A stretch of 64,000 nucleotides of DNA from Oscillospiraceae bacterium. Its GTDB lineage: Bacteria > Bacillota > Clostridia > Monoglobales > WRAG01. Of the stretch, positions 4,249 to 57,412 are shown piece after piece. Location of the stretch: contig WRAG01000010.1 of the NCBI GenBank assembly GCA_009780345.1, positions 251-64,250 of the forward strand, given 5' to 3'. The notes beneath the pieces are model-generated. The model worked only from the letters and a program-made list of their open reading frames with translations, did no database searches and was not told the DNA's origin. Within the stretch, counting starts at the first letter, position 1, and every line of letters begins with the position of its first letter. The translations under genes and the position numbers were made by a program.

Positions 4249-4288
4249 CAAAATCGCCGCATATCACGATGATATGCGGCGATTTTTT
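4249..4288 (+). terminator. Rho-independent terminator of the 131..4234 gene
   Basis: Stem aaatcgccgcatatc / gatatgcggcgattt followed by a T-run. Confidence 0.8.
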
Positions 4289-4304: not shown

Positions 4305-4495
4305 TTATAATGGGCATAGCATGTAGAAATGTAAGCATTTCTACCGCAAAATTTTTGATTTTGCGTATTGAATTTGAAAAATTCAAGCAATGCCCATTGC
4401 AATGAGGTGTGTAAAATTTTCCGCGAAAATTTTTAGCGGCGCTTTGCTCCGAAGCGAAATAGCAAAGCTATTTCGACAACAAACTCTCATTATAA
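4305..4495 (+). repeat. 191-bp structured MITE-like intergenic repeat, copy 1
   Basis: Starts TTATAATGGGCATAGC and ends ACTCTCATTATAA (inverted termini TTATAATG / CATTATAA). It contains six short hairpins inside two long-range closing stems. It aligns along its full length with copies at 20324..20514 and 45378..45569. Confidence 0.85.
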
Positions 4496-4514: not shown

Positions 4515-4543
4515 TTGACATTATAATTTGTTTGTTGTATAAT
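4515..4543 (+). promoter_or_regulatory. Sigma-70-type promoter for tRNA-Gln
   Basis: TTGACA (4515-4520), 17-nt spacer, TATAAT (4538-4543). The tRNA starts about 22 nt downstream. Confidence 0.75.
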
Positions 4544-4564
4544 ATGTGAGTTGTTAATTTATAT

Positions 4565-4641
4565 TGGGCTGTAGCCAAGTCGGTAAGGCACCAGACTTTG
4601 ACTCTGGCATTCCGTAGGTTCGAGTCCTGCCAGCCCAGCCA
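4565..4641 (+). tRNA. tRNA-Gln (anticodon TTG)
   Basis: Acceptor stem TGGGCTG / CAGCCCA. Anticodon arm CCAGA-CTTTGAC-TCTGG. T-loop GGTTCGAGTCC. Encoded 3' GCCA. Confidence 0.9.
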
Positions 4642-6970: not shown

Positions 6971-7011
6971 AAAAACAAAACTCCCGCTCAGTTTTGAGCG
7001 GGAGTTTTTTT
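6971..7011. terminator. Bidirectional terminator between convergent putP and the CobW-like gene
   Basis: aaaactcccgctca-gttt-tgagcgggagtttt, flanked by A- and T-runs. Confidence 0.8.
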
Positions 7012-7969
7012 ATGTATTTAGAAATCGTTTAACCTCTTCCTCGTTCATACTATTACCGATAAGTGTCAAAGTCTGCTCGCCGCTTCCTTTGAACGGCGTC
7101 ACAGTTACGTCTTGCATCGCGATATTAAGCAGAATAAGCTCGCCGTCGATGTTTAAAATTCCCTTAGCGCGGCAGATGTCGCCGAATGTTCCATCGCCGC
7201 AAAGTTCAATCAATCGCTCAAGCTTCGCGCGTGTAAAGATTGTTGCCGGCTTTATCGTTATCGAATGAAGGTGGCTGTGATGATGTGCGTAATGTTCTTC
7301 AGGCGGTAAATTTTCCTGGCTTAGCAGAAGTTCGAAATCGGCTGAATTCCAATCATCCCATGCTTTCGCGGCTATAAAAACGTCGGGATTAATATTTTTA
7401 ATATCGCAGATTAGTTCTGCCACATTCACAGCCTCGCCTCTAAATGTTTGCTCAGAGTGTGGCGTGGGAAATAGTGCAGGCTTTGCCTGCTTTTCTAATT
7501 TGCTTAAAACAATCGAGGGCGCGTTTTTAATCTGGTTATATATAAAACTGCCGTACGTCGCCTTTGAAAACTCGAAATTAACGCTGTCAACAATGGTAAT
7601 TACGTTGCCAATCTCGCATTTGTCCTTCAATTCTTCCGATTTTAGGATATCGAAAAAATTATCGAATATAAAAATTCCCGACGGCTCAAAAACGATACGG
7701 TCTGGCGAAAATGTGTCGATAACCTGCATTATCGCAACTGAAATCTCATCTTTAAGGGTGCAGCAGATACAGCCGCCCTCCATTTCGACAGCGGTGAATC
7801 CGCTCGATTCGATAATCCGCGCGTCAAGCCCGGTTTGGCCGAACTCGTTGACGATGCAAACAGATTTCAGACCCAAATCAATGTAGTATTTTAGCAGTTT
7901 ATTTACGAACGTGGTCTTTCCCGCGCCGAGGAAACCGGATATAATATCTAATTTGGTCATATTTGTCAC
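7010..7969 (-). CDS. COG0523/CobW-family G3E GTPase (putative metallochaperone)
   Basis: P-loop GFLGAGKTTF. CxCC motif GGCICCTL. His-rich stretch HYAHHHSHLH. CobW_C-like C-terminus. Confidence 0.85.
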   Translation of the reverse strand: MTNMTKLDIISGFLGAGKTTFVNKLLKYYIDLGLKSVCIVNEFGQTGLDARIIESSGFTAVEMEGGCICCTLKDEISVAIMQVIDTFSPDRIVFEPSGIFIFDNFFDILKSEELKDKCEIGNVITIVDSVNFEFSKATYGSFIYNQIKNAPSIVLSKLEKQAKPALFPTPHSEQTFRGEAVNVAELICDIKNINPDVFIAAKAWDDWNSADFELLLSQENLPPEEHYAHHHSHLHSITIKPATIFTRAKLERLIELCGDGTFGDICRAKGILNIDGELILLNIAMQDVTVTPFKGSGEQTLTLIGNSMNEEEVKRFLNT

Positions 7970-7977
7970 CTCTTAAT

Positions 7978-8047
7978 GTAGGGGCGGCATTTTGCCGCCC
8001 GTGCTAACGGATAATATCATTTTCGGGCGGCAAAATGCCGCCCCTAC
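7978..8047. repeat. Inverted pair of 24-nt arms, each arm itself a self-complementary GC hairpin
   Basis: gtaggggcggcattttgccgcccg .. cgggcggcaaaatgccgcccctac, located between mtaC and the CobW-like gene. Confidence 0.8.
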
Positions 8048-8099
8048 AATTAAAAAGCGACTACAAAATAAGTAGCCGCTTTGAATTATCATTGTCGAA

Positions 8100-8732
8100 T
8101 TAAGCAACGAATGTTCGCGCAACTTCCGCCGCGCTTGCCGCGTCGGGCGAATATGCGTCCGCGCCGATTTGGTCGCTGAAACTTTGAGAAATTGGCGCGC
8201 CGCCAACCATGATCTTAACGCTGTCACGAAGTCCGGCAGCTTTAAGCGCGTCGATTACCACTTGCTGCTCATTCATAGTTGTGGTAAGAAGCGCCGACAA
8301 CAGAAGAACTTGTGGCTTGTGCTCTCGAACCGCTTCAACAATTTTGTCTTCCGAAATGTCGATACCCAAATCCATAACTTCGAATCCTGCGCCCTCTAAC
8401 ATCATTTTAACCAAGTTTTTGCCGATATCGTGCAAGTCGCCTTTAACCGTGCAGATAATCGCTCTTCCGATAGGTTGAACGCCCTCTTCAAGCAGCTTTT
8501 GCTTCAAAAGTTCGGTTCCTTGATTTAAAGCGCGCGCCGCGATTAGAACTTCGGGCACAAAAACTTCGTTATTTTTAAATCTAACACCGATTTTTCCCAT
8601 GCCGTCAAGCAATCCTTGGTCAAGAATTTTCGACGCCGGAATACCGTCCGCAATTGCTTGCTTCACAAGCTCGACAACGTCTTTTGCTTTACCTTTTTGC
8701 AGTGATTCAGAAATGTTAACTAAGATTTCCAT
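8100..8732 (-). CDS. mtaC: Corrinoid (B12)-binding protein of a methyltransferase system
   Basis: N-terminal helical cap plus a Rossmann B12-binding domain with the DxHxxG motif (GDLHDIGKNLV). It lies adjacent to mtaB. Confidence 0.8.
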   Translation of the reverse strand: MEILVNISESLQKGKAKDVVELVKQAIADGIPASKILDQGLLDGMGKIGVRFKNNEVFVPEVLIAARALNQGTELLKQKLLEEGVQPIGRAIICTVKGDLHDIGKNLVKMMLEGAGFEVMDLGIDISEDKIVEAVREHKPQVLLLSALLTTTMNEQQVVIDALKAAGLRDSVKIMVGGAPISQSFSDQIGADAYSPDAASAAEVARTFVA

Positions 8733-8752
8733 GTTTTTATCCTCCTAAAATT

Positions 8753-8800
8753 ATTATACTGATTTTTATTATTAATTTGTCAAGGACCAGCCCTTGACAA
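8753..8800 (-). promoter_or_regulatory. Candidate mtaC promoter embedded in a 9-bp-arm palindrome
   Basis: On the minus strand: TTGACA (8778-8783), 19-nt spacer, TATAAT (8753-8758). The palindrome ttgtcaagg-accagc-ccttgacaa spans 8777-8800. The spacer is longer than optimal. Confidence 0.45.
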
Positions 8801-9206
8801 TCCCGCAATCTTTTGCGCGTCAAAAGTTTGATCAAAACCGGTCGCCTTGCGTTGTCGCAAAACGCTTACGCTGCGCAACGAATCGGCGACGGCGAGTGCG
8901 AACAACTCGTCATTACCCAACAACATCTCGCGCTTTTAGGCGCGGGTCGCTCTCGACCGAGCGCAGTGCTATATCTCTCTAATTTTTCCGCGAACGCGGC
9001 TAGTCAACCCAGCTTTTCTGTCGCCGGCTTTGGTGCAAATCGCCGCTTTTTGGCGTTTGCGTCCATAGGCGACCGGGATTGGTAAGGGCAGAGCCCTTAT
9101 CGCCCGTCCGGCAGGACACAATGCCCGCAGAGCCTCGCTCTGAATAATGGTTTTTAGGGCATCGCCCTAAAAACCTACGCTGTGGCGTAGCCACTACGTA
9201 TTCCTG
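8801..9206 (-). other. GC-rich, hairpin-dense non-coding spacer between mtaB and mtaC
   Basis: At least 10 short stem-loops, for example ggtttttagggc-atc-gccctaaaaacc, aagggc-aga-gccctt, cagagc-ctc-gctctg, ccgcg-aa-cgcgg and cttttg-cgcgt-caaaag. Only short Arg-rich ORFs are present. Confidence 0.6.
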
Positions 9207-10577
9207 CTACATATCGTACTTCTTAGGATCCAACTTCGAGCATCGTGGAATCATTTGCTCTGCCAGTTCGCCCGCGTCTTTCGGCATATCCTGAACCGTT
9301 TCGGCAAGCATATCCAACCACATAAGCTCTTTATCGTCCAAGTTAAGCTCTTTATTGTTATACGCTTTTTGCATATATTCAAGCGCGAGCAATGCGCCTG
9401 CTTTCGAACGCTCGTAATATCCGTCGATTTTAACAAGTTCTTTAGAAATATTAAGCACAACGTCGGGACGCAACACATATGCCTGCGGATCAAGTCTGCT
9501 GTCACTATCCGCATGCAAGTCACGCATGAGAAGTGCGGCATCTTTGCCGCGAGCGGTAGCTTCGTTCATCAAACGGCAATCGTAAACAAGTTGCTCGAAC
9601 GAAACGGTGGGAGCCATTCCGCCGAGAAGTTTGATGTTCTGAATCGACTCGTTGCTCCAAATATCAGCCAGGCAGAACGCGATATTTCCAATCGGCGATA
9701 AATGCGCGCAAGCCGCGGTTCTTCCCTCCATAGAAATCGGAGTTCCTGTAATCGCTTTAACGTATGCGCCTTCGTAGCCGCAATCTTTATGCGGACCTTT
9801 CGCGCCGCATTCAATAGCGACAAGCGCGCGAATCGCGGAAACCACTCTTACGGTCGCGGAGAACACTTTCGGTATCATGTTTCGATCGGCGAGAACCATA
9901 GCGGTGTTCGCAAATCCACACGCGCTGTCGCCCGCCGGAACCACGCCGGTTTTATCGCAGATGTTTACGATTTCGCTCCAAAGTTTGTTCATATCGGTGC
10001 AGCCAAGCACAGACAGCGCGAAGATTGACTTATCAATCTCGCCGAACATAATCGCTTCGTCATGCGATTCTTTTCCGCCGACAGATTCGATGGAAATGAA
10101 GTCCGCGCCCACTTTCGCGCAACCTTCAATAACGCTAAGTACAGATTCCCATTGCTTACCCTTCCACATATGTTCAAGCCCCGGGCCTTCGCGCATATCA
10201 ACGGGCGTAAGCCTTACAGAACCTTTAATACCATGCTTCGCTTCGTATTCTTTGATCACGTCAACAACGGTTTTGCAAACCTCGACGCCCCACTCGGGAT
10301 TCACAGTCATAGGCGGCAGGGTTTCGATCTCCGCCACGAAGCCGGGAACATAAAGCTCTTTCGCGCGGTCGCATATGCCTGTAATGATTTCTTTGTAGTT
10401 GCGAATAACTTCGGGCATTGTTTCCTGCGTGATAAGCATTGGCGGCAACGTAAAGTTAACTTCCGGATAAACCGTTCCGCCGCCGATTGACATTCCGTTT
10501 TTAAGCGTAACGGGGTGTAGCGACTTTCCGTATATAAAATCGTCAAGATTTTGATATGCGGTTTTGGTAAAATTCAT
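9207..10577 (-). CDS. mtaB: Methanol:corrinoid methyltransferase (MtaB family)
   Basis: About 456 aa starting at ATG 10577, with RBS AAAGGAG 9 nt upstream. The conserved block GPHKDCGYEGAYVKAITGTPISMEGRTAACAHLS matches the MtaB core as I recall it from Methanosarcina. The ORF-track start at 10700 is an upstream extension. Confidence 0.85.
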   Translation of the reverse strand: MNFTKTAYQNLDDFIYGKSLHPVTLKNGMSIGGGTVYPEVNFTLPPMLITQETMPEVIRNYKEIITGICDRAKELYVPGFVAEIETLPPMTVNPEWGVEVCKTVVDVIKEYEAKHGIKGSVRLTPVDMREGPGLEHMWKGKQWESVLSVIEGCAKVGADFISIESVGGKESHDEAIMFGEIDKSIFALSVLGCTDMNKLWSEIVNICDKTGVVPAGDSACGFANTAMVLADRNMIPKVFSATVRVVSAIRALVAIECGAKGPHKDCGYEGAYVKAITGTPISMEGRTAACAHLSPIGNIAFCLADIWSNESIQNIKLLGGMAPTVSFEQLVYDCRLMNEATARGKDAALLMRDLHADSDSRLDPQAYVLRPDVVLNISKELVKIDGYYERSKAGALLALEYMQKAYNNKELNLDDKELMWLDMLAETVQDMPKDAGELAEQMIPRCSKLDPKKYDM

Positions 10578-10941
10578 CTTTAACATCTCCTTTTGAGACT
10601 TAGATTGCGTGAATTGCCGCAATCTATAGTCGGTAACGGCAGCCCGCGCATAGCGTGCGGCAATTACACTATGCCGTTTTGACGCGTATTTTGCGTCCAA
10701 AGTTCAGGGGCGTAACATTCTTGTGCGTCTTTACAAGAATGCAAAGCCATCTGCCTTTTCTAAAATTTATGTCTGTAACATTTTCATTTTGGTACTTATT
10801 TTACACTAATTGCATAGGGATTTATAGCAAAATTTTTTGATTTTTTGAAAAATTATGCTTTTTTCTCCAAATCAGGCTTGAAATTGCAGTAATTTAGTGA
10901 TATTCTTAATTGGGCATGCTTACAAAGCGGGAGGACTGCAT

Positions 10942-20301: not shown

Positions 20302-20330
20302 TTGACAGTCCGCAAGTCTGCCTTTATAAT
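20302..20330 (+). promoter_or_regulatory. Hybrid promoter formed at the left junction of MITE copy 2
   Basis: TTGACA in the flank (20302-20307), exactly 17 nt, then TATAAT supplied by the repeat terminus (20325-20330). It points into the repeat and toward the ABC-F gene. Confidence 0.4.
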
Positions 20331-20514
20331 AGGTACTGCATGTAGAAACGCTTGCATTTCTACCGCAAAATCTTTGATTTTGCGTATTGAATTTGAAAAA
20401 TTCAAGCAATGCCTATTGTGAGAGGCATGTAAAAATTTTCAATGAAAATTTTTGGCGGCGTTTTGCGCCGCGGCGAAATAGTTTTGCTATTTCGACAACA
20501 CACTCTCATTATAA
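20324..20514 (+). repeat. 191-bp structured MITE-like repeat, copy 2
   Basis: Same termini and hairpin set as copy 1. It sits inside the loop of a flanking hairpin (caagtctgcct .. aggcagacttg). Confidence 0.85.
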
Positions 20515-20567
20515 TTATTAAATAGGCAGACTTGTCTGTTATCGAACTATAATTTGGAGGGGTTTTA

Positions 20568-22638: not shown

Positions 22639-25600
22639 ATGAAAAAATTTGCATTTTTAATGGCTTTGATTTTTATTTTGGGGCTGCTTCCAATCAGCGG
22701 TGTCTATGTTAGCGCTGCTACCAGTATTAGTGATTTCACGATAATACCGGGTGAGGCTCATGATGTCGATTGGTCGGAAATTTATGATACCCTAAGACCC
22801 GGGCAAATTTGGACGGACAAATCTGTTTACTACCCGCAAGATTCGCTGACTGATGATTATGACGGAACGGTTGTCATTACCATTTACGTATGGGGCAGGC
22901 CTTACATGACCGAAAGCGGCGATTACGGAATGTTGGGTGGTAACCAAGAGGTAACAATCACCACTCAAATCGGCGATTTTCAACTTGAGGATTCTGTTTA
23001 TCCGGCAGGCGTTACTTTTTTGGAAGCCGCGAACGGAGTATTGCAATGGAGTATTCCTGAAGCGCTTATTACGGACCCCGACGAACCGTTAGCGGTACAT
23101 TTTTATCTTTATTTGGAAGATCGAGCAAATTGGCTGACAAATTTTTGGTATTCGACCAGCGGTTCATTCCTTGAAGTAAAGTTTGAGCCCGGGCTTGACA
23201 ATCCATACTACTGGACAACCGAAGAGGTTACATACAACGCGTTCGACGCGCCCACCATGAACTGGAACAACGGAACCGGACTCAACAGCGGAACGATTGT
23301 AGATAATGTTTTAGGCATAACCTTATCTTTCGGCAAAAACGCAAGCCCCGCTAATCAAACCGCGGCTTCCGTTCCTTGGGCAAACACAACTTATCGGAAT
23401 AATTACTGGGCTCAAAACGCCTTAGTTGTAGGTCGCCCTCAGCCATATTATTGGCATTTGTATTGGGTTAGAACCACTCCGAAGATATACATATTTACTG
23501 TGCACGGGTTAGTCACCGATGTTGACGGTACTGCGATTGATGTCGTTTATGAAATCTCGCTAGGCGGAATGGGCGGGAACTCTCCCGTGGCAGGAAGCAG
23601 AACAATTACAAGTGATGTGTATTTTAGAAGAACTTTTGTCGAAGGCGATCCGACTCAACTTTTCCACTGGGACGAAGAAGGATTCTTGGTTTACAGCACG
23701 CCGTTAATCGCGCAAATTATGCTGATTGACGAAGAATCGACGCATGACGTTTATTTCGGCTCTTTGATAATTGAAAAAGAATTTCCGCCCGATGGAGAAG
23801 ATTGGCGCCACCTTGATTGGGACGTAGATGATGAAACGCTATTTACCGTAAGGCTTAAAACTGACAACGATTTCTATGTAGTGCTCGAAGAAGGTCTTGC
23901 GCAAAATGAATTCCACTTCGACGGATTTACCGATAGACCGGAACTTGCGACCACAATTACTTTTTCGGTAGATGTTCCCGCTATCATTGAAGATTTGCCA
24001 AGGTATATGTCAGATGATGACGCCGCCAATAATATTCCGATATTGTATTCGGTACATGAATTTTTTGAAGGATTCTTCGAACCGAGAGATTGGCCGCTTG
24101 TTTACGAGCGGATTAATGTTTACTATTCTTTAGATTATGAAGAATTTTATCCGGAACCGCCCTCGTTCGAAATTATAAGTGAGGAATATAGAACCATCAC
24201 TATATTGAATAAATTTGAACACGGTATCGGATTTTTAGAAGTTTATAAACTTATGGACGGTTTCCCCGCCGATTGGGACGTGGATTATGATACCGTATTT
24301 TACATCCGCATTTGGGATGTATATGCGCAAAACTATTTGCTGTTCGACGCCGATCGTGAATTTGAACCCGGTTCGCCGTTTTACGGCACCATTTGGTGTA
24401 TCGGTAACCACGAAATCGGATTAACCGAGCCGCACGAAGGCCGCGTAATGATGGAAATTCCGATTAGCCGTAACCAACCCGTTCGGCTTTCGAACTTATG
24501 GACGTGGGGTAGTTATCAAGTCGTTGAAGTGCGTCAAGCAGACGCGGTGTTCCCGCAAGAGACCCAAGATCCGTTACTTGATCCTGATTGGATATATTTT
24601 TGGGATAACATCGCCGACCGCACGCCATTTTACCTGCGAACGCCGGCAGAATGGGCGGAAAGCTTTGCTTGGTTGCAAAATCGCATTGACAATGATTGGA
24701 CGGAAATCCGACAAGTCGTAACTGACGCCGAGTGGCACGCGGTGCCGATAGATGAGTGGTTTTGGGGCGTTATATATTCAGAAAACAACTTCACGACCTG
24801 TGACGATCCTTATTGCGATAATCAATACTGCGATGATCCCGATCACGATTGGAGCAATAGATTACATTTTAACCAAACCATTATTACAACAGTAACCAAT
24901 CGTTTCAAATTCCATTGCGGAACTTTGGTGTTCACTAAAGATCTTTGCGATAATGCCGCGGCTTGGGGAGTAGATGGAGATACTTCATTCTTCGCGCGGG
25001 TCAGAGCGGACGACGGCAGAATTTTAGTATTCGTTCCTGACGGCGATGACTTCCGAGTGATTGGATATATAGAATATAATGACGGTGTTTTCGGCACTTA
25101 TCAGGTTCTCTGCCCTGTCGGTGGAGCGAATCCGCCGGGACAACATATGATCGGCAACAGCCTTTTGCCCGGCAATCACTCGACGATCATTGAATTCAGC
25201 GCGAATTCTTCGACAAGACTTATAGAAGTGCCTTCATATCCGTTTGGATTTGATATTTATTACACGATTGAAGAAGCTTTCCCGTTCGGAGAGCCTCTCG
25301 GTTTCTTGGATAGTGAATATTTTATGGGAGAAGACGAAATTCCCGCCGGCGGGTTTATAGTTCCTCACGGTGAAACTATAGATATAACGATTCGCAATAC
25401 TTTCGAGCCGGGGAACGGAGAATTCATCATTTTCAAGGAATTAGCAGGTGAGTATGCGGCGTGGGATGTGGATGATACAACCGAATTCTTCGCGATTGTT
25501 GAGCGAGATAGTGATGAAGAACTTTTATACTTCATTTTTGACGCGGAGGAAGAAGTATTTGTGTATGTAAACGCGAATCCGACTTATTTTACAATCCCTG

Positions 25601-28344
25601 AAGGTGAGCCGCAAGCCGTTATTCCGTTTTCGGTAGAAAATCCGGCTGTTTTGGTGGGACTTAGCACTGACCACACCAATTATACGGTTTCTGAGGTAGG
25701 TAGTGACGGCGATCCGCTTGGCACCATTGCCGAAATCGGTTTTGTGGCAAATGTTGTCGGACCTGCTGTTAGTGGTTACAATTTACTTGTAACGATTACA
25801 AACAGATTTTACCCGCGGCCTAACATACCGACTTTCGGTGTAATCTATGACGGCAACGAAAACACAGGCGGCGAAGTTCCCGAGGATGACAACGAATATC
25901 TCGCCGGCGCGACTGTAACGGTGCTGGGTAACGCGGGAACTCCGCCTCTTACTCGAACCGGACATATTTTTATCGGTTGGAATACTCAAGCGGACGGTGG
26001 CGGCACGCCATATGTGGCTGGAGAAACATTCTTAATGCCTGCCAGATATGTTACGCTTTACGCGGAGTGGAAGCCTTTATTTACAGTAACCTACGACGGC
26101 AACGGCAACACCGGCGGCGATGTTACGATTGACGATAACGATTATATCGCCGGCGCAACCGTAACTGTATTAGGCAACGTTGCGCCTACCCCTCTAATCC
26201 GAACCAACTATAATTTTATCGGTTGGAATACTCAAGCGGACGGCGGCGGCACGCAATATGCTGCGGGAGAAACGTTCTTAATGCCTAACCGAAACGTTAC
26301 ACTTTACGCGCAATGGGAAAACATATACACCCCACCTACATTTACGGTAACTTACAACGGTAACGGCAACACCGGCGGTTCTGCCCCTGTTGACGATAAC
26401 GAATATAATACAGGCGCAATCGTAACCGTATTAGGCAACACCGCGCACGCGCCATTGGTTCGAACTAATTACGTTTTCGCGGGTTGGAACACACGACGCA
26501 ACGGAAGCGGCACGCAATACGCGGCAGGAGCTACGTTTACAATGCCTCCTCGAAACGTTACGCTTTACGCTCAATGGTATCCGGAAGATACATTTAACGT
26601 AATTTACGACGGCAACGGCGGGAATACAACAGGCACACCGCCGGCTGACTTGAACGATTACTACGGCGGAACTTTGGTAACCGTACTTGGTTCAGGTACA
26701 ATGAGCAATCCTAACTATGAGTTTATAGGTTGGAATACCGAGCCCAACGGTTCAGGCACGCACTTTAATATTGGTGATGATTTTGTGATGCCGTATGAGG
26801 ATGTTACGCTTTACGCTCAATGGTCGGCATACCCGACTTTTGAGGTGATTTATGTATCAACTCTGCATACAAGCGGTGTTGCTCCTGTTGATCCAAATAG
26901 ATACCTTGAGGGCGCGACGGTAACGGTAAGAAATCGAAACACACTCGCGCGAACCGATTGGGACTTTATCGGCTGGAGAAGCGACGACGGAACACTTTAC
27001 AAAATCGGCGATACTTTTGAAATGCCTGCTCGAAACGTTCGCTTAACCGCGGAATGGGCAGAACCGCCGACTTATACTATCACTTATGACGCAAATGATA
27101 ATGATGGCGGCTCGGCGTTCCAAGGAATCCTTCCGATTGACGAAAACCGTTATTTGCCGGGAAGTACTGCGACAGTAAGAGATCGAAATGACGCTCTCGG
27201 AATACCGCCTATTTCCAGATTAGGTTATACCTTAATTGGCTGGAATACCGCGTCCGACGGTTCAGGAGATTCCTTCGAACACGGTAACAGTTTGGTTATG
27301 CCTGCCGGAAATGTTACACTTTACGCGCAATGGCGGCGTAACAGCCATTCGCTGATTTACGACGCGAACGGCGGAACGGGAACACCGCCCGTTGACAACG
27401 GGAGTTATGCGGGCGACGGCTATGAAACTGTTGTAATACAAGACCAAGGCGAATTGCTTAGAGATCGGCACAGATTTATCGGCTGGAATACCGAGCCTGA
27501 CGGCAGCGGCGAGTGGTTCCAACCGGACGACACACTTACAATGCCCGATTCGGACGTAACGCTTTACGCGCAGTGGGAACATTTAGGCACTCCGCCTCCA
27601 CCACCTCCACCGGGACCGGGTTGGCGCCCGCCTCCTTCTTATGTTCCGATAAGACCAATACCGCCGCCTACCGCGAAAGACTTTTTCGTTGACGACCATA
27701 TTTGGTATATCCGCGGGTACGAGAATACCGAAATCAGACCGAACAACAACATCACCCGTGCGGAAATCGCAATGGTATTTTATCGTTTGCTAAGACCGGA
27801 ATTAAGGAATTTTACGCCGTATAATCCGTTTAACGATATAAACGGTGACGAATGGTTCGGGCTTGCGGTTGCTACGCTTGCGTATTACAACGTGTTCACC
27901 GGATATGAGGACGGGAATTTTGAACCTCATTCGCTTATTACAAGAAGAGAGTTCGCGGCAGTTGTTTCACGATTCGAGTATTTGGTTGCAACTAACGAAA
28001 ACCCATATAGCGACGTAGATTCGAACGACTGGGCGCGCAATTATATCCTTTCGGCAACCCAAAAAGGTTGGTTTGTCGGACACGGCGGAATGTTCAGACC
28101 GTCAGACAATCTTACTCGCGCCGAGCTTGTAACCGCTGTGAATCGCGTTCTTAATCGGCATATCTTGCTTGAAGATATTCCTGATGATGTGTTTAATTTC
28201 CCTGATTTAGACCGCACGCATTGGGCGTACGCGGCGTTCATGGAAGCCACACACACTCACGAGTTCGAAAGAAACGCCGACGGCAGAAATGAAACATGGA
28301 CAGAAATTTTAGGAACAGGTTTAGACGCGGCATATAACCAATAA
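22639..28344 (+). CDS. 1901-aa SLH-anchored surface protein: N-terminal domain, four prealbumin-like beta-sandwich modules, 7 Flg_new repeats, a poly-Pro linker and 3 SLH repeats
   Basis: Signal peptide. Repeated module signature (IIEKEFPPDGEDW.., LEVYKLMDGFPADW.., LVFTKDLCDNAAAW.., IIFKELAGEYAAW..). Seven units ending LYA[EQ]W between about 25830 and 27585. Linker PPPPPPPGPGWRPPP. SLH motifs with ITRAE / ITRRE / LTRAE. Confidence 0.85.
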   Translation: MKKFAFLMALIFILGLLPISGVYVSAATSISDFTIIPGEAHDVDWSEIYDTLRPGQIWTDKSVYYPQDSLTDDYDGTVVITIYVWGRPYMTESGDYGMLGGNQEVTITTQIGDFQLEDSVYPAGVTFLEAANGVLQWSIPEALITDPDEPLAVHFYLYLEDRANWLTNFWYSTSGSFLEVKFEPGLDNPYYWTTEEVTYNAFDAPTMNWNNGTGLNSGTIVDNVLGITLSFGKNASPANQTAASVPWANTTYRNNYWAQNALVVGRPQPYYWHLYWVRTTPKIYIFTVHGLVTDVDGTAIDVVYEISLGGMGGNSPVAGSRTITSDVYFRRTFVEGDPTQLFHWDEEGFLVYSTPLIAQIMLIDEESTHDVYFGSLIIEKEFPPDGEDWRHLDWDVDDETLFTVRLKTDNDFYVVLEEGLAQNEFHFDGFTDRPELATTITFSVDVPAIIEDLPRYMSDDDAANNIPILYSVHEFFEGFFEPRDWPLVYERINVYYSLDYEEFYPEPPSFEIISEEYRTITILNKFEHGIGFLEVYKLMDGFPADWDVDYDTVFYIRIWDVYAQNYLLFDADREFEPGSPFYGTIWCIGNHEIGLTEPHEGRVMMEIPISRNQPVRLSNLWTWGSYQVVEVRQADAVFPQETQDPLLDPDWIYFWDNIADRTPFYLRTPAEWAESFAWLQNRIDNDWTEIRQVVTDAEWHAVPIDEWFWGVIYSENNFTTCDDPYCDNQYCDDPDHDWSNRLHFNQTIITTVTNRFKFHCGTLVFTKDLCDNAAAWGVDGDTSFFARVRADDGRILVFVPDGDDFRVIGYIEYNDGVFGTYQVLCPVGGANPPGQHMIGNSLLPGNHSTIIEFSANSSTRLIEVPSYPFGFDIYYTIEEAFPFGEPLGFLDSEYFMGEDEIPAGGFIVPHGETIDITIRNTFEPGNGEFIIFKELAGEYAAWDVDDTTEFFAIVERDSDEELLYFIFDAEEEVFVYVNANPTYFTIPEGEPQAVIPFSVENPAVLVGLSTDHTNYTVSEVGSDGDPLGTIAEIGFVANVVGPAVSGYNLLVTITNRFYPRPNIPTFGVIYDGNENTGGEVPEDDNEYLAGATVTVLGNAGTPPLTRTGHIFIGWNTQADGGGTPYVAGETFLMPARYVTLYAEWKPLFTVTYDGNGNTGGDVTIDDNDYIAGATVTVLGNVAPTPLIRTNYNFIGWNTQADGGGTQYAAGETFLMPNRNVTLYAQWENIYTPPTFTVTYNGNGNTGGSAPVDDNEYNTGAIVTVLGNTAHAPLVRTNYVFAGWNTRRNGSGTQYAAGATFTMPPRNVTLYAQWYPEDTFNVIYDGNGGNTTGTPPADLNDYYGGTLVTVLGSGTMSNPNYEFIGWNTEPNGSGTHFNIGDDFVMPYEDVTLYAQWSAYPTFEVIYVSTLHTSGVAPVDPNRYLEGATVTVRNRNTLARTDWDFIGWRSDDGTLYKIGDTFEMPARNVRLTAEWAEPPTYTITYDANDNDGGSAFQGILPIDENRYLPGSTATVRDRNDALGIPPISRLGYTLIGWNTASDGSGDSFEHGNSLVMPAGNVTLYAQWRRNSHSLIYDANGGTGTPPVDNGSYAGDGYETVVIQDQGELLRDRHRFIGWNTEPDGSGEWFQPDDTLTMPDSDVTLYAQWEHLGTPPPPPPPGPGWRPPPSYVPIRPIPPPTAKDFFVDDHIWYIRGYENTEIRPNNNITRAEIAMVFYRLLRPELRNFTPYNPFNDINGDEWFGLAVATLAYYNVFTGYEDGNFEPHSLITRREFAAVVSRFEYLVATNENPYSDVDSNDWARNYILSATQKGWFVGHGGMFRPSDNLTRAELVTAVNRVLNRHILLEDIPDDVFNFPDLDRTHWAYAAFMEATHTHEFERNADGRNETWTEILGTGLDAAYNQ

Positions 28345-33495: not shown

Positions 33496-36400
33496 CTATA
33501 ATCTTAATTCATATGGGAATGCCTTCAAGATGATAACGTCAGTAACTATGCCGTCAATCATTTGCATAACAACCCAATCACGAACCGCGATTGCCGGAGC
33601 AGGGAAGTCAGGCCAGGAATCTAGTGATGTTGTTCTCAATCTCGCTCCGGCTGTTAACCATTGTTGATGCGGACGATTGATGTTTCCAAGATCACCGACT
33701 ATCAATTGCATTGAAGCAACTCCTTGACTCATATCAAGCACATAAACATTAGCGCCAGAACGAATGTTGTATCTCATGCTTGCAAAGTTCCAACGTTGAG
33801 CTTCAGTATTATGCCAATTGTGTCCCATGCCATCAGTAAATCTTGGTCCAACGGTTATAAATCCCGCTCCTGTTTGCACAACAGGACCCATAATAATTGA
33901 TTGACCTTCATCGAAATCAGTCCAAACGGAAACCTCGTTAGGTAAAGCTCCTAATTCCAATTCGAAGCTAGTTGCCAAATTTACTAATGTCGGCAATCTA
34001 TGTGTAAAATGAGACGTAGACGTATTATCTACACTAATGTTATCTAATTCAAACAATGCAGAAACTTCATAGATTTCATCTCTCTCATTCACACTATAGC
34101 GGAAAGCAGTACCTCTAAGCATGTTGTCAAAATGATGTGCCGTATTAACTGTTGATAACAAGTTCCTTCTTTCGCCGTTTTGAAAGAATTCTACACTCCT
34201 AACCCTTTCGTCGGAATCATTAATTGTCTGGGCTACAGAATTAAATACCGCCAGATGATATGCCGGGTCGGGCGGCTCAGCGCTACCAAAACCGGGGAAG
34301 ATATCAGCATTGACAGGATCGTGATCGAAAGCAACTATTACTTGAACCACGCCGGTTCTTTCATTTAAGTCAAACAGCTGAACTTGCTCAAGTATACGAG
34401 CGTGAAAAAGGAAATCGTCAACAGTTCTGACTCCTGACCTCGCGCTGTCAATTTCACCAAACTCATTCGTTTGAATATCAAATATAAGCGTATCATTGTT
34501 AACGTTTGCGCTTAGTCTGGGAGTAAGATAGTCAACAGTAGTGACTCTGTCGTTACGAACGTCAAACGCAAACGTTCTGCTAACATAAGCAGGTCCTACA
34601 GAAGAGAATTCTCTGCCGGTCCACCCATTTGATCTCGCAAATTCAACACTGGTGATTTGACCGCTAACATTAACGCTATATCTGATTAGCTTGTTTTCGA
34701 AGAAGCTTAACCCACCCGGTAGCGGAGCAAAATTTCCGGCTGCACCGCCGTCACCTCTGAATGAATCAACCCCAAACGGTGAATTTTCAATATTTACAAC
34801 CGGCGCAAATCTGCGAGTCGATACACTACCGTCTCTATGTAATATTTGAAGCAAGCCTCGTCGACTAAAACCATCATCACCGGTATCGGCCATCATAACA
34901 AACCCGTAATTTATAAGTTCAGCCGGCGCTTTAAAAGCGGCAATATTACCGAATTCGTCAAGAACGAACGTTCCTTCCGAGCCAACCCTCACTCTTGATG
35001 TATCGTAAGCTCCAACCGCAACATAGTACTCTGTTCCGTCAATCCAGAAAGTCGGACCGGGAAGAAGATTTCCTTGAGAGTCAACCCATTCAGACGGCTC
35101 CCACGAACGAGGTGAAGCAGACGTTATCGCAACTCTACCTTCAATAGTGTTCGTCAAAACACGAATATTGTATAAGAAATCGTCAACAATGTTAACCATG
35201 TTAACTTCTACAGCCAATACGTCACCCTCGTTAATATCTCCAAGTCCGATTCGGCGACCGTTTCGTGTAATCCTGTAAGAAACGTCTAAACGGCTCGTGT
35301 CAAGCTCGATGACAGATGGCAAAAGCCTAGAATTCACAGGATTTCTTGCAATAAGAACTCTAGCGTTTGTGTCAACTTCATCAACAACGAAAATTTGAGG
35401 AGAATTTACAATTATTAAATCATTCCATCCTGTTCCGTTAGTGTCAATAACAGTTATGGTTCCGTTTGATAGCGAATTGCCTAAGATTGTGCTTTGACCG
35501 TGTGTGAATATCTCATCATCCCATACAGTTCTGCCATTATATATAACGGTATAGTTATCGGCAAGGCTTAGCGTGGTAGAAACCCTTGAGCCGGCATTTC
35601 TAAAATACCTAATTCTATCATTTCCGCTCCAATCAAATTCAAACCTATCAAAATCAGCGATATTAAATCTAGTCGATACATTTCTGTTCGTTTCCGGAAC
35701 TATTGAAACGATTACGTCATCAATTTGCCCGTATTCTTCCACGATATAGAAAACCACACGTTGACCGATAAAATTAGCGGCGTTAGTGTTTCCAACACGG
35801 AACGCCACATTATTAAGCGTGAACGGATAAATCGTAGGCATGGCATATCTCGGGTTATCTGTTCCAAAGTTGTTGTAAATATTTAACCTAACCGTCTCAG
35901 GCGCCGTAGATTGGTTATTAATAATTTCAGGTCCAAAAAGATTAGTATATCTGTTAGCAACCACTCTCCCACTAAGTCTGATAGCATTGTCCGGAATAAT
36001 AATAGTGTCGGGAAAATCACTATAATTCATTTCAGCCTTAGTTATGTCATGTCCGACCAGGTATCTTTTAAGCCTAACCGCGTCGTCAAGGTCAGGTCTG
36101 CCCCTTAAGATAGATGCTTCGGTTACCATTGCGGCATTATGATTTATTTCTACGTCATGATCGGCAAGGTATTTCGCAAGCCATGAAACATCAAGAAGAT
36201 CAATGGTTCCATCACCGTCTATATCACCCGGAATAAAGTCGCGCAACAATATTCGTCCGTTAGTAATAGGAATATTCAATTCTTCCCCATCAGCATTTCG
36301 CGGAATACTGTTATAATCTCTAATCGCGAAGCTTGCTTCAACCGGATAAACGTTAAATACAGCCTCAGAATCAGTAGCAAAAGTTAGCCTAAGCAATACA

Positions 36401-42582: not shown

Positions 42583-45399
42583 GTGCTTAAAAAGCTAATA
42601 TCGACAATAATTGTAATAGTAATGTTTATATCGATTTTGCCTGCCCTCGCCATGCCTGACGTCAATGACCATTGGGCAAATGACGCAATTCAGCGTTGGT
42701 ATGACTTCGGCGTAGTCAGAGGTTACGACGACGGAACTTTCCGCCCCAATAACCTCATCACCCGCGCCGAATTCGCGACAATTATCAACCGCGTTTTAGA
42801 AAGCAACGCAACATCCGACGCAACGTTCCCCGACGTCGCCCAAAACGCTTGGTACGCAAGCGAAATACGGCAAGCGTACGCAACCGGCTTTATGCGCGGC
42901 GACGCGGACGGCACAATGCGCCCGAACGACAATGTTACCCGCGAGGAAGCGGCGGTTATGCTTGGCCGCGCCTTTAATGTGGCGGAAAATAGCGGAAACG
43001 AAAATCCTTTCGCCGACGCAGACGAAATTTCCGGCTGGGCAAGCTATCATGTCGACGGAATGAGAGCGGCAGGGTATATTACGGGCTATTACGACGGAAC
43101 TTTCCGCCCGCGGAACTATATTACCCGCGCGGAAACCGTGATTTTGATTGACCGAATCGCGTTAGAGTTTTATGAAGAAAATAATCGACCTACAACGCCC
43201 GCGCCGCCCATTATCGGCGGACCTTCGGGCGGCGGAAACTTTGGCGGCGGCGGTGGCAGACAACCGGGACCATCAGGACCTCCGATGCCGGGGCCGGGAC
43301 CGAGTCCTCAACCGTTCGTGTTCGAAATTCCAAGCGAAATCCGCGTGTCATCGCAAAGCCGCTTTTACCTTATAGATATAATCCAACTTTCCGACAACAC
43401 GATAGTAACATCTGAATTTTTGAATCATTCCGGCGAAGGTTCGCATATAAGTTTTGGCGGCGTGATTGACGAAATAGGCAAACAAATATTACTTCACGCC
43501 GGTGGGTGGAATATTGAACCGAGCAGCGAATTCACCCTTGAATTCACCGCAACCCGCGGAACCGAAACCTTGACACGTCAAATGACCGTAATTATCGAAG
43601 AATCAGAATGGTATTCTATTAATGCGAACAATATGCTTTGGGCGCGCACCCCGATAATACTTCCCGATATTACCGGCGATTATTGGATTAGCTATACGGT
43701 TTGGTATCGCGACGTAAGAAACGGCCGGATATTTGGTGGCGGTCGCGGGCGGAGCACTCTCCCCGCCGGCGAATTTGAAGTTATCGCAGGCGGCGTGATT
43801 CATAATTTCAATGGTTTCAGCGAAGAATTCAGCGAACTCGGCGGAATAATAGGATATGAAGACTCAACCTATGATATTGATTATTTGACCTCAATTATCT
43901 CTCCGAGACCGCCGCCGCCACCGCCGCCGCGTCCGTTTATTATGCCCGAGCACGATTTTGACTTAATCCCAAGCGTGCCGCCGCAAAACGTGATAATCAC
44001 GCAAGAGGACGTTAATAATTTCCACGAAATGGGAGATTATCATTGGGTGACAAAAGAACTACCCACAATCACCCTTGTGCCGCGCGCGCGAAGAACGTTC
44101 TCGCTTACAGGCATAATAATCGCACCAAGTAGCGTTACGGGAACGGCGAGTGTCACAGGAACGGCGTATGTGACCTTACAAAGCAGAATGGAAGATTTCT
44201 ATTTCGGACATAGGTACACCCGAACAATCGAAGTTCCGATAAACGACATACTCACGGAGTATAGGTTCGACAACGTTCCAATGGGCGTATATGATATAAT
44301 CGTTGACTTAAACCGAACCAATATTGCGCAAATCTCGACGGTTCTAAACCAAAACCGAACAGGTCACAACATCGTACTAATCGCGTCGGACAGAGAAATG
44401 GGGCGCGTTGCGGGAACCATAACCATCGACCGCGCCGTGGATTGGGATATGAGCGTATGGGTTAACATTTCCAGAGGTTATTCTAATTTTTGCCCTGAAT
44501 CAGGCGCGGGAAGCAGCTGGTCAGTCTCATATTGGGGGGACGGCTTTATTATCCCCGCAGGACAAACAAGCGTAGACTTCCTTTCCTCGCGACTGCCGAC
44601 CGGCGAATATGATATTCAGGTTTCTATAGCGAACACTTTAACCGATTATATTTCAGATGCCGTTCAAATAACCAACACTACCGTGCAAAAAGACTTCGAT
44701 TTCACCGTCGGACAGAGAATCACCGGAAGAGTTGAAAATTGGCAACGGTTTGCAGAACCATGGATGCCTAGTAATAATCCGAATAGAGTAATAGTAAGCC
44801 TTGTCCATCCATACACGCTAACTTCAAGATCGATGACGATCGCTCCGTTCCCTCGTCCGCCGTCGGGTGGTGGCACGTGGCCTTGGCCGTCGCCAAGCGG
44901 AAATTTCGGATTTCACGGTCTTGAAAGCGGAACATATGAAGTCAGCGTTGTATTGGAACGGTGGACTTCCGGAAGTTTTCAAACAATTGTGCTCGCCAGA
45001 GAAGAAATCATTATCACCGATTCCGACATTTCGGGCGTAAACTTCGACCTTGCCGACGTTAATCTTTCTTACGAAATCGAGCGTATCGAATTTGAGGGCG
45101 TAGAACTGTCGCAAGATCCGAACAACCCGACGATTTTGCCGTTCCCTAATACTGTGCAAATTGTAGGTAACACCATTTTCGCACATAGGCAGGTTAGTAT
45201 ATATAGGTATATTAATGGCGTACATCAAGGTATATTAAGAGATAGATTTGGAAGCGACAGCACAATAAACATTCCAATGTGGTGGGGAAATGATGAACCG
45301 ATTTCGTTTCAAATTGTCGTTCGCAATTTTGACGGCACATTCCTTGCCGAAAGCGCAACATACTATGTTATTTTGAGTTATAATGGGCATAGCGTGTAG
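42583..45399 (+). CDS. 938-aa surface protein with three N-terminal SLH repeats, Pro/Gly linkers and beta-sandwich-like C-terminal domains. Its last codons and stop come from MITE copy 3.
   Basis: RBS AAGGAG with GTG start. Signal peptide. SLH repeats (DVNDHWANDAI..ITRAE, FPDVAQNAWY..VTREE, FADADEISGW..ITRAE). Linkers GGGRQPGPSGPPMPGPGPSP and RPPPPPPPRP. The final codons aat ggg cat agc gtg tag lie inside the repeat. Confidence 0.8.
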   Translation: MLKKLISTIIVIVMFISILPALAMPDVNDHWANDAIQRWYDFGVVRGYDDGTFRPNNLITRAEFATIINRVLESNATSDATFPDVAQNAWYASEIRQAYATGFMRGDADGTMRPNDNVTREEAAVMLGRAFNVAENSGNENPFADADEISGWASYHVDGMRAAGYITGYYDGTFRPRNYITRAETVILIDRIALEFYEENNRPTTPAPPIIGGPSGGGNFGGGGGRQPGPSGPPMPGPGPSPQPFVFEIPSEIRVSSQSRFYLIDIIQLSDNTIVTSEFLNHSGEGSHISFGGVIDEIGKQILLHAGGWNIEPSSEFTLEFTATRGTETLTRQMTVIIEESEWYSINANNMLWARTPIILPDITGDYWISYTVWYRDVRNGRIFGGGRGRSTLPAGEFEVIAGGVIHNFNGFSEEFSELGGIIGYEDSTYDIDYLTSIISPRPPPPPPPRPFIMPEHDFDLIPSVPPQNVIITQEDVNNFHEMGDYHWVTKELPTITLVPRARRTFSLTGIIIAPSSVTGTASVTGTAYVTLQSRMEDFYFGHRYTRTIEVPINDILTEYRFDNVPMGVYDIIVDLNRTNIAQISTVLNQNRTGHNIVLIASDREMGRVAGTITIDRAVDWDMSVWVNISRGYSNFCPESGAGSSWSVSYWGDGFIIPAGQTSVDFLSSRLPTGEYDIQVSIANTLTDYISDAVQITNTTVQKDFDFTVGQRITGRVENWQRFAEPWMPSNNPNRVIVSLVHPYTLTSRSMTIAPFPRPPSGGGTWPWPSPSGNFGFHGLESGTYEVSVVLERWTSGSFQTIVLAREEIIITDSDISGVNFDLADVNLSYEIERIEFEGVELSQDPNNPTILPFPNTVQIVGNTIFAHRQVSIYRYINGVHQGILRDRFGSDSTINIPMWWGNDEPISFQIVVRNFDGTFLAESATYYVILSYNGHSV

Positions 45400-45569
45400 A
45401 AATGCTTGCATTTCTACTGCAAAATCAAAGATTTTGCATATTGAATTTGAAAAATTCAAATAATGCCCATTGCAATGAGGCGTGTAAAAATTTTCCATGA
45501 AAATTTTTGGCGGCGTTTTGCGCCGCGGCGAAATAGCTTTGCTATTTCGACAACACACTCTCATTATAA
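45378..45569 (+). repeat. 192-bp structured MITE-like repeat, copy 3
   Basis: Same termini and hairpins as copies 1 and 2. It overlaps the 3' end of the 42583..45399 ORF. Confidence 0.85.
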
Positions 45570-45690: not shown

Positions 45691-48600
45691 CTAGATAATC
45701 ACATCTTCCGCTCTCGCGTTCGGCAATTGCAACATTGCCCAGTTGCGCGCGGGGGCTTGGGGTGAGGAATTAGACGCAATCTGCATCGCCCAATAGAACC
45801 AAGCGCTTGTGTTCGCGTTATCTATCCAAGTTTTCATGTTCGCCGTATCAATATCGGTTGCCGTACGACTTAGCACACGGTTAACTATTGTCGCGAACTC
45901 TGCTCTTGTGATATTTGCGTCCGGATTAAAGTTTCCGTATTGATCACCCTGTATCCAACCGATTTGTGCCGCTAGGTTAATATTATTTCTCGCCCAACTG
46001 TCGGAAATATAAGGGAACATATCTGTTGTGCCACGATATTGCGCTTCGTCGTGTAAAAACCGTGTCATAACCGTGACAACTTCCGCCCGTGTAATTGGCA
46101 GATTCGGTCTGAAAGTGCCATCCGGAAAGCCTGTCATTATTCCCTTATGATTCGCCGTCGATATTGCATTGCTAAACCAAGCTTCGCCATTGTTCGGCAC
46201 ATCAGAGAACGGGTTTTCAAGCGTCCAGTAAGCGGCTCTCGTTTCATCGCTTACAATCCGTAAGAGAATGCTCGCCACTTCAGCGCGGGTAATAACATCG
46301 TTCGGCGCGATGTGGTTATTTCCTTCTCCGATAAGGTAGGAATAGTGAATTTCTGTCAAAGTAACATCCTGCCTAAATCCCGGGTCTTGAATTTCCGGTT
46401 CCCGATTTCCAGAATCTATAAATATCGGAGGTCTAAATACCGGATCGTTAAATCCCGGATTTTGATTAGCGGTCCAATGCGCGTATAGGGTGTGATCGCT
46501 TGTTTGTGTCACCAAACTTGATGCAAGTACACGCGTTCCGCCGTTTGCGTTAGTGAACCATCCCAAGAAGGTATGCCCTGCTCTGGTTGGCGTTGTGATT
46601 ACGTTAAACGCGCTTTGATATGTGCCGCCAACGGTAACTGACGCGGTTTGTGTTGCGGGCGCGCCGCCGTTTGCGTCGAATGTCACCGTAATAGTCGGCG
46701 GTGGCGGCGGCAGTTCAGGCGCCCATTGCGCGTAAAGAGTAGTATCTATCGATGGAACATTGCTCAAATCGGTAATTTGTGTCCCGCCCGTCTGCGCGTC
46801 AAACCAGCCTTGGAACACAAAACCCGTCTGCGTCGGCTCTGTCACCGAAGCGAGGATAGACGCGTAACTGCTACCTACCACGTTCCCGCTCACAACCAGT
46901 GGCGTCGGCGTTCCGCCGTTCCCGTCAAAGGTAATCGTCACCGTTGGAAGCGGCGCCCATTGCGCGTAAAGCGTTTGATCCGCCGTCGCCGTTACTATAT
47001 CGGCAGGCTGCACCTGCGTTCCGCCAATGATTTGCGTGAACCAACCTACAAAGTCGCTGTCTGCCATAATCGGAGTTGTAACAGCGGCGAATGGTGCTTC
47101 ATAGGTGTTACCGCTTATCGCTGGCTCTTCCTGCATGGCGGGCGTTGCTCCCAGCGAGTCAAAGATGATATTAATCTGAAGCGGTGCCCATTGCGCGTAA
47201 AGCGTTGTGTTTGTTGCCGGAATTATGTCCGCGTCTGCAATCTTGACGCCTCCTGTCGGCGCGTCAAACCAACCGAGGAACGTGTAAAATTCTTGCGTAG
47301 GCTCTGTAACTGAAGCAAGCGTAACGGCATAAGTGCCGCCGATAATTTTGCCGGATACGACTTGAATTGCTGGTGTTCCGCCGTTCGCGTCAAAGGTTAT
47401 CGTAACTGTCGGGTCTGCAATCCAATGCGCGTAAAGCGTTTGATCTGCTGTTGCTGTTACGATCGTTGTGTCGAGAATTTGCACGCCGCTCGTATCTCCG
47501 TTAGGCGTGGTAAACCAGCCGGCAAAAATATAGCCGAATTGTGTTGGTGTTGCGACTTGCGACAAAGCACTTGCGTATGTGCCTGTCACTTGAACCGGTG
47601 TTACTGTCTGCGTTGCAGGCGTGCCCCCCTGTGCGTCAAAGGTGACGGTGATAGTGGGAACCGGCGCCCACTGCGCGTAAAGCGTCGTATCCGCCGACGG
47701 AACAGAGCTTGAATCGGTAATCTGCGTGCCGCCCGTCTGTGCGTCAAACCAGCCTTGGAACACAAAATCGGTTTGCGTCGGTTCGGAGACCGAAGCGAGG
47801 ATAGGCGCATAGCTGTTGTTAGGCGCGTTTCCGCTCACAACCTGCGTCGTGGGATCGCCACCGTTCGCGTCAAAGGTGATAGTGACCGTCGGATCGGCAA
47901 TCCAGCGCGCGTAAAGCGTTTGATCCGCCGTCGCGGTAACCGTCGTCGTGTCGAGAATCTGCACAGCGCCCAATGTTCCGCTCGGCCCGGTAAACCAGCC
48001 GTTGAAAACGTAACCCGCGAGCGACGGATTCGCGATTTCGCCAAACGCCGCCGCGTATGTGCCGCCGACTGTAACCGTTGCCGTCTGCCCGTCGGGCGCG
48101 CCGCCCTGCGCGTCGAAAGTGACATTAATTGTCGGTTCGGGAGTCCACCACGCGTAAACGTAAACCGTTGTAGCATACGGAGGCACCAAGTACCCCGGGC
48201 TAACTGTGCTTCCGCCCATACCTTGCGGTTGGTCGTGCCAACCATTAAAGATATACCCCGCCAAAGTCGGCGTTGTAATTGCGTTAAGAGCAGAGGCGTA
48301 GGTTGAAAGAGGAATCTGACCGCCCACGGTCTGTGTCGCGGGGCTGCCGCCTTGCGCGTCAAATATTATCGTAACAGTAACTGAAACCCAGTGTGCGTAA
48401 AGGATTTGGTCGGTTGTCGCCGTCACAACTGTGGTCGGAAGAATCTGAACGCCGCTCGTATCTCCGTCCGGGGTTGTGAACCAGCCACTAAATGCGTAAC
48501 CCATTTTCGACGGAACTTGGACTTGGGACAGCGCGGGCCCGTAGAGAGTTCCGGTTTCCAATATTTGCTGTTGCCCGTCGGGCGTGCCGCCTTGCGCGTT

Positions 48601-54024: not shown

Positions 54025-54116
54025 AGTAAAACCTCATTTCATTGTGTTTTGAATACATTGTATTATATAAACGAATTGTTGTCAAGTTTTATTTTGAATT
54101 TATTTTATGGATTTTT

Positions 54117-54767: not shown

Positions 54768-54769
54768 TC

Positions 54770-57405: not shown

Positions 57406-57412
57406 TTTAATA

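Follow-up and report, generated by a model that had tools for sequence, protein, structure and literature searches.

A 191-bp element (191 ± 1 bp) that occurs three times in a 64,000-nucleotide stretch of an Oscillospiraceae contig, hereafter the window, is a real and previously undescribed non-coding repeat family of uncultured gut-type Oscillospiraceae. Each copy folds into two tandem four-way junctions, the two halves of the element are related to each other as reverse complements, and the paired positions are far better conserved than the loops between them. We estimate a probability of roughly 0.55 that the element is a MITE-like or REP-like non-autonomous dispersed repeat whose hairpins act at the DNA level and whose effects on promoters and transcript leaders are incidental.

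The three copies in the window align end to end, all lie on the plus strand, and are pairwise 85%, 87% and 90% identical (blastn E-values of 1e-56 to 1e-70), which bears out the 85–90% identity and the common orientation given by a sequence-only reading of the same DNA. That reading had copy 2 begin with TTATAATG; its actual start is TTATAATA. A 21-mer from the element occurs three times in the window, against an expectation of 0.02. Sensitive profile and covariance-model searches revealed no fourth copy in the window or in the approximately 9.4 kb of the same contig past its end, so that the source contig carries three copies per ~73 kb examined. The copies and the features next to them are as follows:

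4305..4495, plus strand: copy 1 (half 1, 4305-4399; half 2, 4400-4495)
20324..20514, plus strand: copy 2 (half 1, 20324-20418; half 2, 20419-20514)
45378..45569, plus strand: copy 3 (half 1, 45378-45472; half 2, 45473-45569)
4250..4288, plus strand: terminator-like hairpin and T-run of the gene upstream of copy 1, read from the sequence; ends 17 nt before copy 1
4515..4641, plus strand: TTGACA-17-TATAAT promoter (4515-4543) and tRNA-Gln (4565-4641), just 3' of copy 1
20302..20330, plus strand: predicted sigma-70-type promoter, TTGACA-17 nt-TATAAT, matching the consensus at 12/12 positions, with the left terminus of copy 2 as its -10
20313..20323, strand not applicable: left arm (11 bp) of an inverted repeat in host DNA that brackets copy 2, CAAGTCTGCCT
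20524..20534, strand not applicable: right arm of the same inverted repeat, AGGCAGACTTG, 9 nt past the right end of copy 2

A pattern search of JGI metagenomes with half 2 returned ten contigs, seven of them from one sample, and all ten carried true copies. With the three window copies, the repeat proposed by the sequence-only reading numbers 13 copies, spread over 11 different contigs and at least five samples, and is a genuine family with sharp boundaries. Seven of the ten JGI copies are full-length, two start in or just after the second hairpin (loci L021 and L026), and one consists of half 2 only (L018). The same element is present in independent ENA, Logan and JGI assemblies; the source contig itself, 82 kb long, is found in the ENA assembly, and a Logan short-read assembly of another run breaks within the element, as expected of a multi-copy repeat. 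Identity among the family copies ranges from 83 to 96%, and the closest pairs come from different samples, with window copy 3 being 96% identical to both L024 and L017. Since copies on one contig differ by 10–15%, the family is old.

Beyond these assemblies, a 21-mer scan of one genome per species produced 14 single matches in unrelated phyla, all of which we discarded as chance matches of 21–26 nt. The viral contigs scanned held no copy, and distant blastn searches of plasmid and phage collections yielded no match. Rfam contained no family reaching the gathering score, and permissive thresholds (E up to 10) gave only chance-level matches on the element (E 4–9). The sequence-only reading had allowed for an already described family, and none emerged from the Rfam, plasmid or phage searches. 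No reading frame stays open across all three window copies, and the minus-strand open frame through the element, used as a protein query for more copies, recovered nothing. The copies reside in unrelated intergenic contexts, and copy 3 reaches into a coding sequence. The genes around the copies (SLH, Listeria-Bacteroides repeat, sortase and cohesin/dockerin) are consistent with an organism of Clostridia type.

The three incomplete JGI copies have contexts of their own. At L026:4331-8091 (minus strand), the copy is split into columns 1-43 and ~68-194, and 3.57 kb replaces hairpin B. This insert encodes an AAA_5 (McrB-like) ATPase of 643 aa, together with a partner of 422 aa that has a PD...E-x-K-like motif; both genes follow the orientation of the element and are located 3' of a TTGACG-17-TATAAT promoter formed with the left end of the element. 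The copy at L021:576-722 is truncated and starts inside hairpin B, the hairpin that is also broken in L026. The half-2 copy at L018:4837-4940 and the ribosome-binding site of a divergent amidase-like gene are ~20 nt apart, and the right end of the copy contributes to a TTGCAT-17-TATAAT that reads through it.

The minimum-energy fold of every copy consists of two tandem four-way junctions, each made of a closing stem and three near-perfect hairpins, which is exactly the arrangement that the sequence-only reading had described. There are eight stems per element: the closing stems span ~10 bp and the hairpin stems 8–10 bp, with loops of 3–4 nt, and the hairpins are perfect Watson-Crick palindromes without bulges. 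Copies 1, 2 and 3 fold at -64.1, -67.1 and -73.5 kcal/mol (z of -6.7, -7.0 and -8.2), compared with about -39 to -41 kcal/mol for dinucleotide shuffles, none of which (0/200) folds as well. The fold is just as good on the reverse strand, at -62.9 kcal/mol (z -7.0), and with DNA parameters, at -54.4 kcal/mol for copy 3 (z -9.1). We also considered a terminator-type (SPRITE-like) repeat and rejected it: past the GC hairpin the sequence reads GGCGAAAT on the plus strand and AAAAATTTTC on the minus strand, with no T-run. The sole terminator-like site within the element is a weak, borderline one at hairpin B of copy 2, and inspection of the three window copies by eye found no clean T-run after any hairpin.

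The structure derived from copy 3 was scored on the alignment of all 13 sequences. Standard pairs occupy 97.5% of the 854 pair cells. Changes on both sides were found at nine pairs distributed over six of the eight helices, as opposed to 2.4 ± 1.1 in column shuffles (0/500 reach nine), and at only zero to two pairs when the partners were slid by 1–3 columns. In paired columns the copies diverge pairwise by a mean of 6.7%, compared with 31.7% for the hairpin loops and 22.9% for the junctions and termini. The stems are under real constraint. Both compensatory exchanges named in the sequence-only reading were recovered, namely G:C to A:T in closing stem 1 of copy 2 (alignment columns 8/93) and C:G to T:A for the pair at the base of hairpin 2 in copy 3 (columns 42/62), and the covariation that it had seen among three copies survives, as a conserved structure, the addition of ten more (nine pairs vs 2.4 ± 1.1). 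Along the element, conservation is highest at the centre and in the last hairpin and lowest at the termini, above all the left one.

We examined how the pairing and the loops depart from a single state. Departures from standard pairing of the G·U type (G·U if the plus strand is read) and of the A·C type (G·U if the minus strand is read) occur at 12 positions each. Counted as cells, G·U departures number 32 and A·C departures 14, or 22:14 without one invariant pair (T·G), and these cell counts also include a few inherited states. Three loops occur in two exact reverse-complement states (CTTG/CAAG, TTT/AAA and TTT/AAA); the two TTT/AAA flips had already been pointed out and are real, and the third, CTTG/CAAG, is located in the first hairpin. 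For two of the three flipping loops, all four combinations are present among the copies, and the flips are therefore recurrent. Loop inversion is a signature of intrastrand template switching at DNA palindromes, a process that can also copy one arm from the other and so imitate compensatory evolution. Given the recurrent loop inversion and the strand-symmetric pairing, arm-to-arm template switching could yield part of the apparent compensation. The earlier claim that the structure is under selection thus stands with respect to constraint on the stems, but its argument from compensation is incomplete.

The orientation of the copies relative to their neighbouring genes is mixed. Six tandem contexts are informative, and in these four copies are sense and two antisense to the genes; across the family, the upstream gene lies on the opposite strand in 5/13 copies, and two copies run antisense to the genes on either side. 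The sequence-only reading had taken the position of each copy just 3' of a plus-strand gene as a hint of RNA function, a regularity that is true of the window and fails for the family. Set against what a strand-specific structured RNA would display, the covariation is present, but the departures are divided 12:12, the orientation is mixed, there is one borderline terminator-like site, and only some left ends have a promoter. These features, together with the equal folding of both strands and the recurrent loop flips, point to DNA-level hairpins in a MITE/REP-like repeat rather than to a strand-specific RNA.

Covariance models of each half match the other half only as the reverse complement (E 1e-5 to 1e-7). 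In global alignment, half 1 scores 52 against the reverse complement of half 2 (null 33 ± 5) and 29 against half 2 read directly, and the centre of the element, CATTGCAATG, is a palindrome. We conclude that an ancestral ~95-bp module gave rise to the element as an inverted dimer. An equivalent view is that of long, diverged terminal inverted repeats that meet mid-element, as in MITEs that arise from both ends of a parent element. The ends read TTATAATGRG...CYCATTATAA. The left end TTATAATGGG matches TTATAATGAG, the reverse complement of the right end, at 9/10 positions, with the left terminus being poorly conserved among copies, and a weaker inverted similarity extends throughout both 95-bp halves.

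On both sides, homology stops sharply at a TTATAA hexamer. Because this hexamer is palindromic, duplication of TA, TAA, ATAA, TATAA or TTATAA, or no duplication at all, would fit equally, and no direct repeats were found outside the TTATAA hexamers. The copy at L022 carries TAATAA on the left and TTATTA on the right, which fits inverted ends and not a direct duplication. Overall, 8/11 left ends and 12/13 right ends are TA-compatible, and three copies are not. The proposal of an IS630/Tc1-type MITE with a TA duplication is therefore retained in part: MITE-like is the best available label, but the palindromic TTATAA and the ends of L022 leave the IS630/TA link unproven. A solitary end-like motif at 16222 lies within a coding sequence and was dismissed as a chance match.

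Within the window, copy 1 is flanked by the terminator of an upstream 1372-aa surface-protein gene and by the promoter of the tRNA-Gln gene, which is that gene's own and lies outside the copy. On one side of copy 2 is a class B sortase gene; on the other, 54 nt downstream, an ABC-F ATPase gene begins. Copy 3 overlaps the 3' end of the SLH-protein ORF 42583-45399 and takes in its last seven codons and its stop; the SLH protein had no entry in the protein collection searched. Other genes of the same stretch include three giant surface-protein genes at 22639-28344, 33496-39372 and 45691-51930 (1901, 1958 and 2079 aa). In two of the three, the encoded protein combines Listeria-Bacteroides repeats with SLH anchors, and the DNA contains numerous internal repeats at a period of ~240 nt; the product of 33496-39372 has only a weak dockerin-like match. 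A minus-strand cluster at 7010-10700 comprises an MtaB homologue (methanol:cobalamin methyltransferase), a B12-binding protein and a CobW-type GTPase, which suggests methyl-group metabolism in this Oscillospiraceae MAG.

The 11-bp perfect inverted repeat around copy 2 overlaps the spacer of the ABC-F promoter. Inverted-repeat arms of 11 bp are found in 0.3% of random adjacent 40-mers in the window, and this one may be an operator or a hairpin that the insertion of copy 2 split at its centre. Flanking inverted repeats of at least 9 bp occur at 3/10 full copies; two of these three are A/T runs typical of intergenic DNA, and hence we do not claim a target preference for hairpin loops.

Each terminus contains an inward-facing TATAAT. 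At copy 2, the left TATAAT completes the predicted promoter listed above, 245 nt upstream of the ABC-F start codon, from which transcription would run through the element into the ABC-F gene. In 4/11 copies, a -35-like hexamer is found at a distance of 17 bp from the left end (crude binomial p ~0.04), and a comparable one is present in only 1/13 right flanks. An outward promoter at the right end was also considered and rejected, as there is no -35 at usable spacing. Three sense copies end 33–54 nt before start codons: copy 2 (54 nt), L019 (33 nt, asnS) and L023 (42 nt, a 476-aa gene). At these distances, the three downstream genes must be transcribed through the element, and its single borderline terminator-like site is compatible with such read-through.

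Neither a clean empty site nor a presence–absence polymorphism was found at the ABC-F and asnS loci that we compared. ABC-F orthologues of 89% and 81% identity have different upstream genes and no synteny. Orthologues of asnS at 90% and 88% identity occur without the element, and the block in which they differ spans 823 bp (a second GNAT gene plus the element). Comparing L034:2164-2986 with L030:2588-2597, the extra 823 bp comprises, besides the repeat, a spacer and a second, unrelated GNAT gene; in two related contigs the GNAT gene overlaps asnS, and the 823-bp block is bounded by repeats of the motif aaaggaRtaY. A homologue of asnS in an NCBI genome was discarded as a candidate empty site, its upstream region being unrelated. 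With no empty site or polymorphism in these comparisons, the mobility of the repeat is an inference.

No IS-type transposase is encoded in the window or in the fetched loci, and these 238,828 bases together hold no autonomous IS with TAATGRG ends, no IS630-type transposase and no RAYT. The IS630-family transposase with matching termini that had been suggested as a partner was thus not seen in the DNA examined. The accompanying statement that the window lacks a transposase is correct for IS-type enzymes, but a large serine recombinase, the only recombinase found in the window and the fetched loci, is encoded at ~52.1-53.7 kb, in an unrelated integrated element. The region concerned (52070-61669) is low in GC (37–38% vs 44–54% around it), lies beside a tRNA-Leu gene (61586-61669, minus strand), and encodes the large serine recombinase, HTH regulators, RadC and a Mob_Pre relaxase; it looks like an integrative mobilisable element inserted at tRNA-Leu. 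Inside it, a 57-nt sequence with the hairpin AACATTCCCAA...TTGGGAATGTT is present in two copies that are 88% identical (54128-54184 and 57932-57988).

Under the reading that we favour, copies would have spread into AT-rich intergenic sites of the TTATAA type through an enzyme supplied in trans, which would recognise the inverted termini TTATAATGRG/CYCATTATAA, the extruded hairpins, or both. The hairpins would be maintained at the DNA level, where either strand could form them in single-stranded or cruciform DNA, and the perfection of the stems would result from selection together with arm-to-arm template switching, which would also invert the loops. Where the flank happens to supply a -35 at 17 bp, the element would be transcribed and become a long structured leader of the downstream gene, with copy 2 and the ABC-F gene as the clear case. 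The family with its boundaries, conserved structure, strand symmetry, inverted-dimer build and promoter geometry is shown by the data; the mobilising enzyme and the DNA-level mechanism are inferred. Against an active MITE, the combination of least-conserved termini and most-conserved centre is the opposite of what an actively transposing MITE presents, and this old family may by now have been domesticated by its host and no longer be mobile. The three sense copies close to start codons may also act at the RNA level.

Several alternatives were weighed against this reading. The element could act as a structured RNA, be it a small RNA in its own right or a mobile leader or trailer working in cis, transcribed from the left TATAAT or from its neighbours, with its two four-way junctions serving, for example, transcript stabilisation, processing or protein binding. 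We consider this unlikely, even though the covariation is strong and the stems are about fivefold more conserved than the loops. It would also account for the perfect -10 at the left end, the -35 at 17 bp in 4/11 copies and the one promoter at 12/12 consensus, as well as for the three sense copies 33–54 nt before start codons, which necessarily form part of an mRNA leader, and for the larger number of G·U than of A·C cells (32:14, falling to 22:14 once one invariant pair is left out). However, a transcript that starts ~7 nt past the left TATAAT loses the 5' arm of closing stem 1, yet this stem covaries. The bulge-free Watson-Crick palindromes, with loops that invert as DNA does, and the 12:12 division of departures by position also speak against an RNA, as do the mixed gene orientation (two copies antisense to both neighbours), the presence of a -35 at only 1/13 right flanks, the lack of any clean T-run beyond the one borderline terminator-like site in hairpin B of copy 2, and the lack of an Rfam match up to E 10.

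A domesticated host repeat of the REP/BIME type, immobile or moved only by a dedicated RAYT-like enzyme, is in our view just as doubtful as the RNA. Its hairpins would serve the chromosome or its transcripts, for instance as sites for nucleoid proteins or gyrase or as barriers to exonucleases. The age of the family (83–96% identity, with the closest pairs across samples), a centre more conserved than the termini, the intergenic location and the inverted dimer of palindromic modules, reminiscent of REP doublets, all agree with it. Yet the modules are ~95 bp long and AT-rich (31–41% G+C) with six different hairpins, unlike the 20–40-nt GC-rich REPs, no RAYT-like gene is present in the DNA examined, and one copy extends into a coding sequence. 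More speculative still, and improbable, is a strand-symmetric 'double cruciform' DNA site for a structure-specific recombinase or nuclease, with the site serving as the substrate for its own spread and as a landing pad for other DNA. Rearranged copies make up 3/13 of the family; two of them break in hairpin B, and one of these two has a 3.57-kb two-gene McrBC-like cassette exactly in its place, under the promoter that arises at the left end of the element. Chance similarity or an assembly artefact can be practically dismissed, being refuted by the blastn E-values of 1e-56 to 1e-70 and by the independent ENA, Logan and JGI assemblies. The MITE-like or REP-like dispersed repeat remains the reading that we prefer.

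These results add a well-defined and unusually structured repeat family to the poorly known uncultured Oscillospiraceae. The family breaks short-read assemblies, and it can provide housekeeping genes, among them the ABC-F ATPase gene and asnS, with promoters and structured leaders of 190 nt. The joint occurrence of stem compensation and loop inversion warns that covariation in palindromic repeats should not be taken to prove a function as RNA. Interest in the family would grow with the discovery of an enzyme that mobilises it by recognising multi-hairpin DNA.

Of the known systems, the Correia elements of Neisseria (CREE/NEMIS) resemble this repeat in being MITE-like, intergenic and ~100-190 bp long, with inverted termini. 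Their target is A/T-rich and contains TA. They carry 26-bp terminal repeats that form one long hairpin, a clear TA duplication and an IHF site (general knowledge, together with PMC10969869). Here, by contrast, six unrelated internal palindromes build two four-way junctions, and there is no sequence similarity. Sigma-70-type promoters of Correia elements can drive neighbouring genes, and co-transcription gives rise to structured RNA (PMC10969869). The IS630/Tc1-mariner MITEs, such as the pneumococcal RUP, share with our family the small size, the non-coding nature, the short inverted termini and the AT-rich target. They differ from it in that L022 has AA on the left and TT on the right at the possible TA-duplication positions, and no IS630-type transposase with TAATGRG ends was found in the DNA examined.

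The REP/BIME/REPIN sequences are likewise extragenic palindromes arranged as inverted doublets, in old families with conserved stems, and, like this repeat, they may act as single-stranded DNA hairpins. REPs are 20–40 nt long, usually GC-rich single hairpins beside a conserved tetranucleotide, in genomes that also encode a RAYT. Our family instead has AT-rich multi-hairpin modules of 95 bp and no RAYT in the DNA examined, and we do not class it among the REPs. The stem-loop families BOX, ERIC, bcr1 and the enterococcal and Yersinia palindromic repeats are, like this one, genome-specific, 100-200 bp long, intergenic and strongly folding, and are often co-transcribed with their neighbours, but they bear no sequence relationship to it, the Rfam, plasmid and phage searches being empty. 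None of these stem-loop families is known to us to be built as an inverted dimer with a double four-way junction. The family described here belongs to a well-known general kind, that of species-specific structured intergenic repeats, and is set apart within it by this uncommon build.
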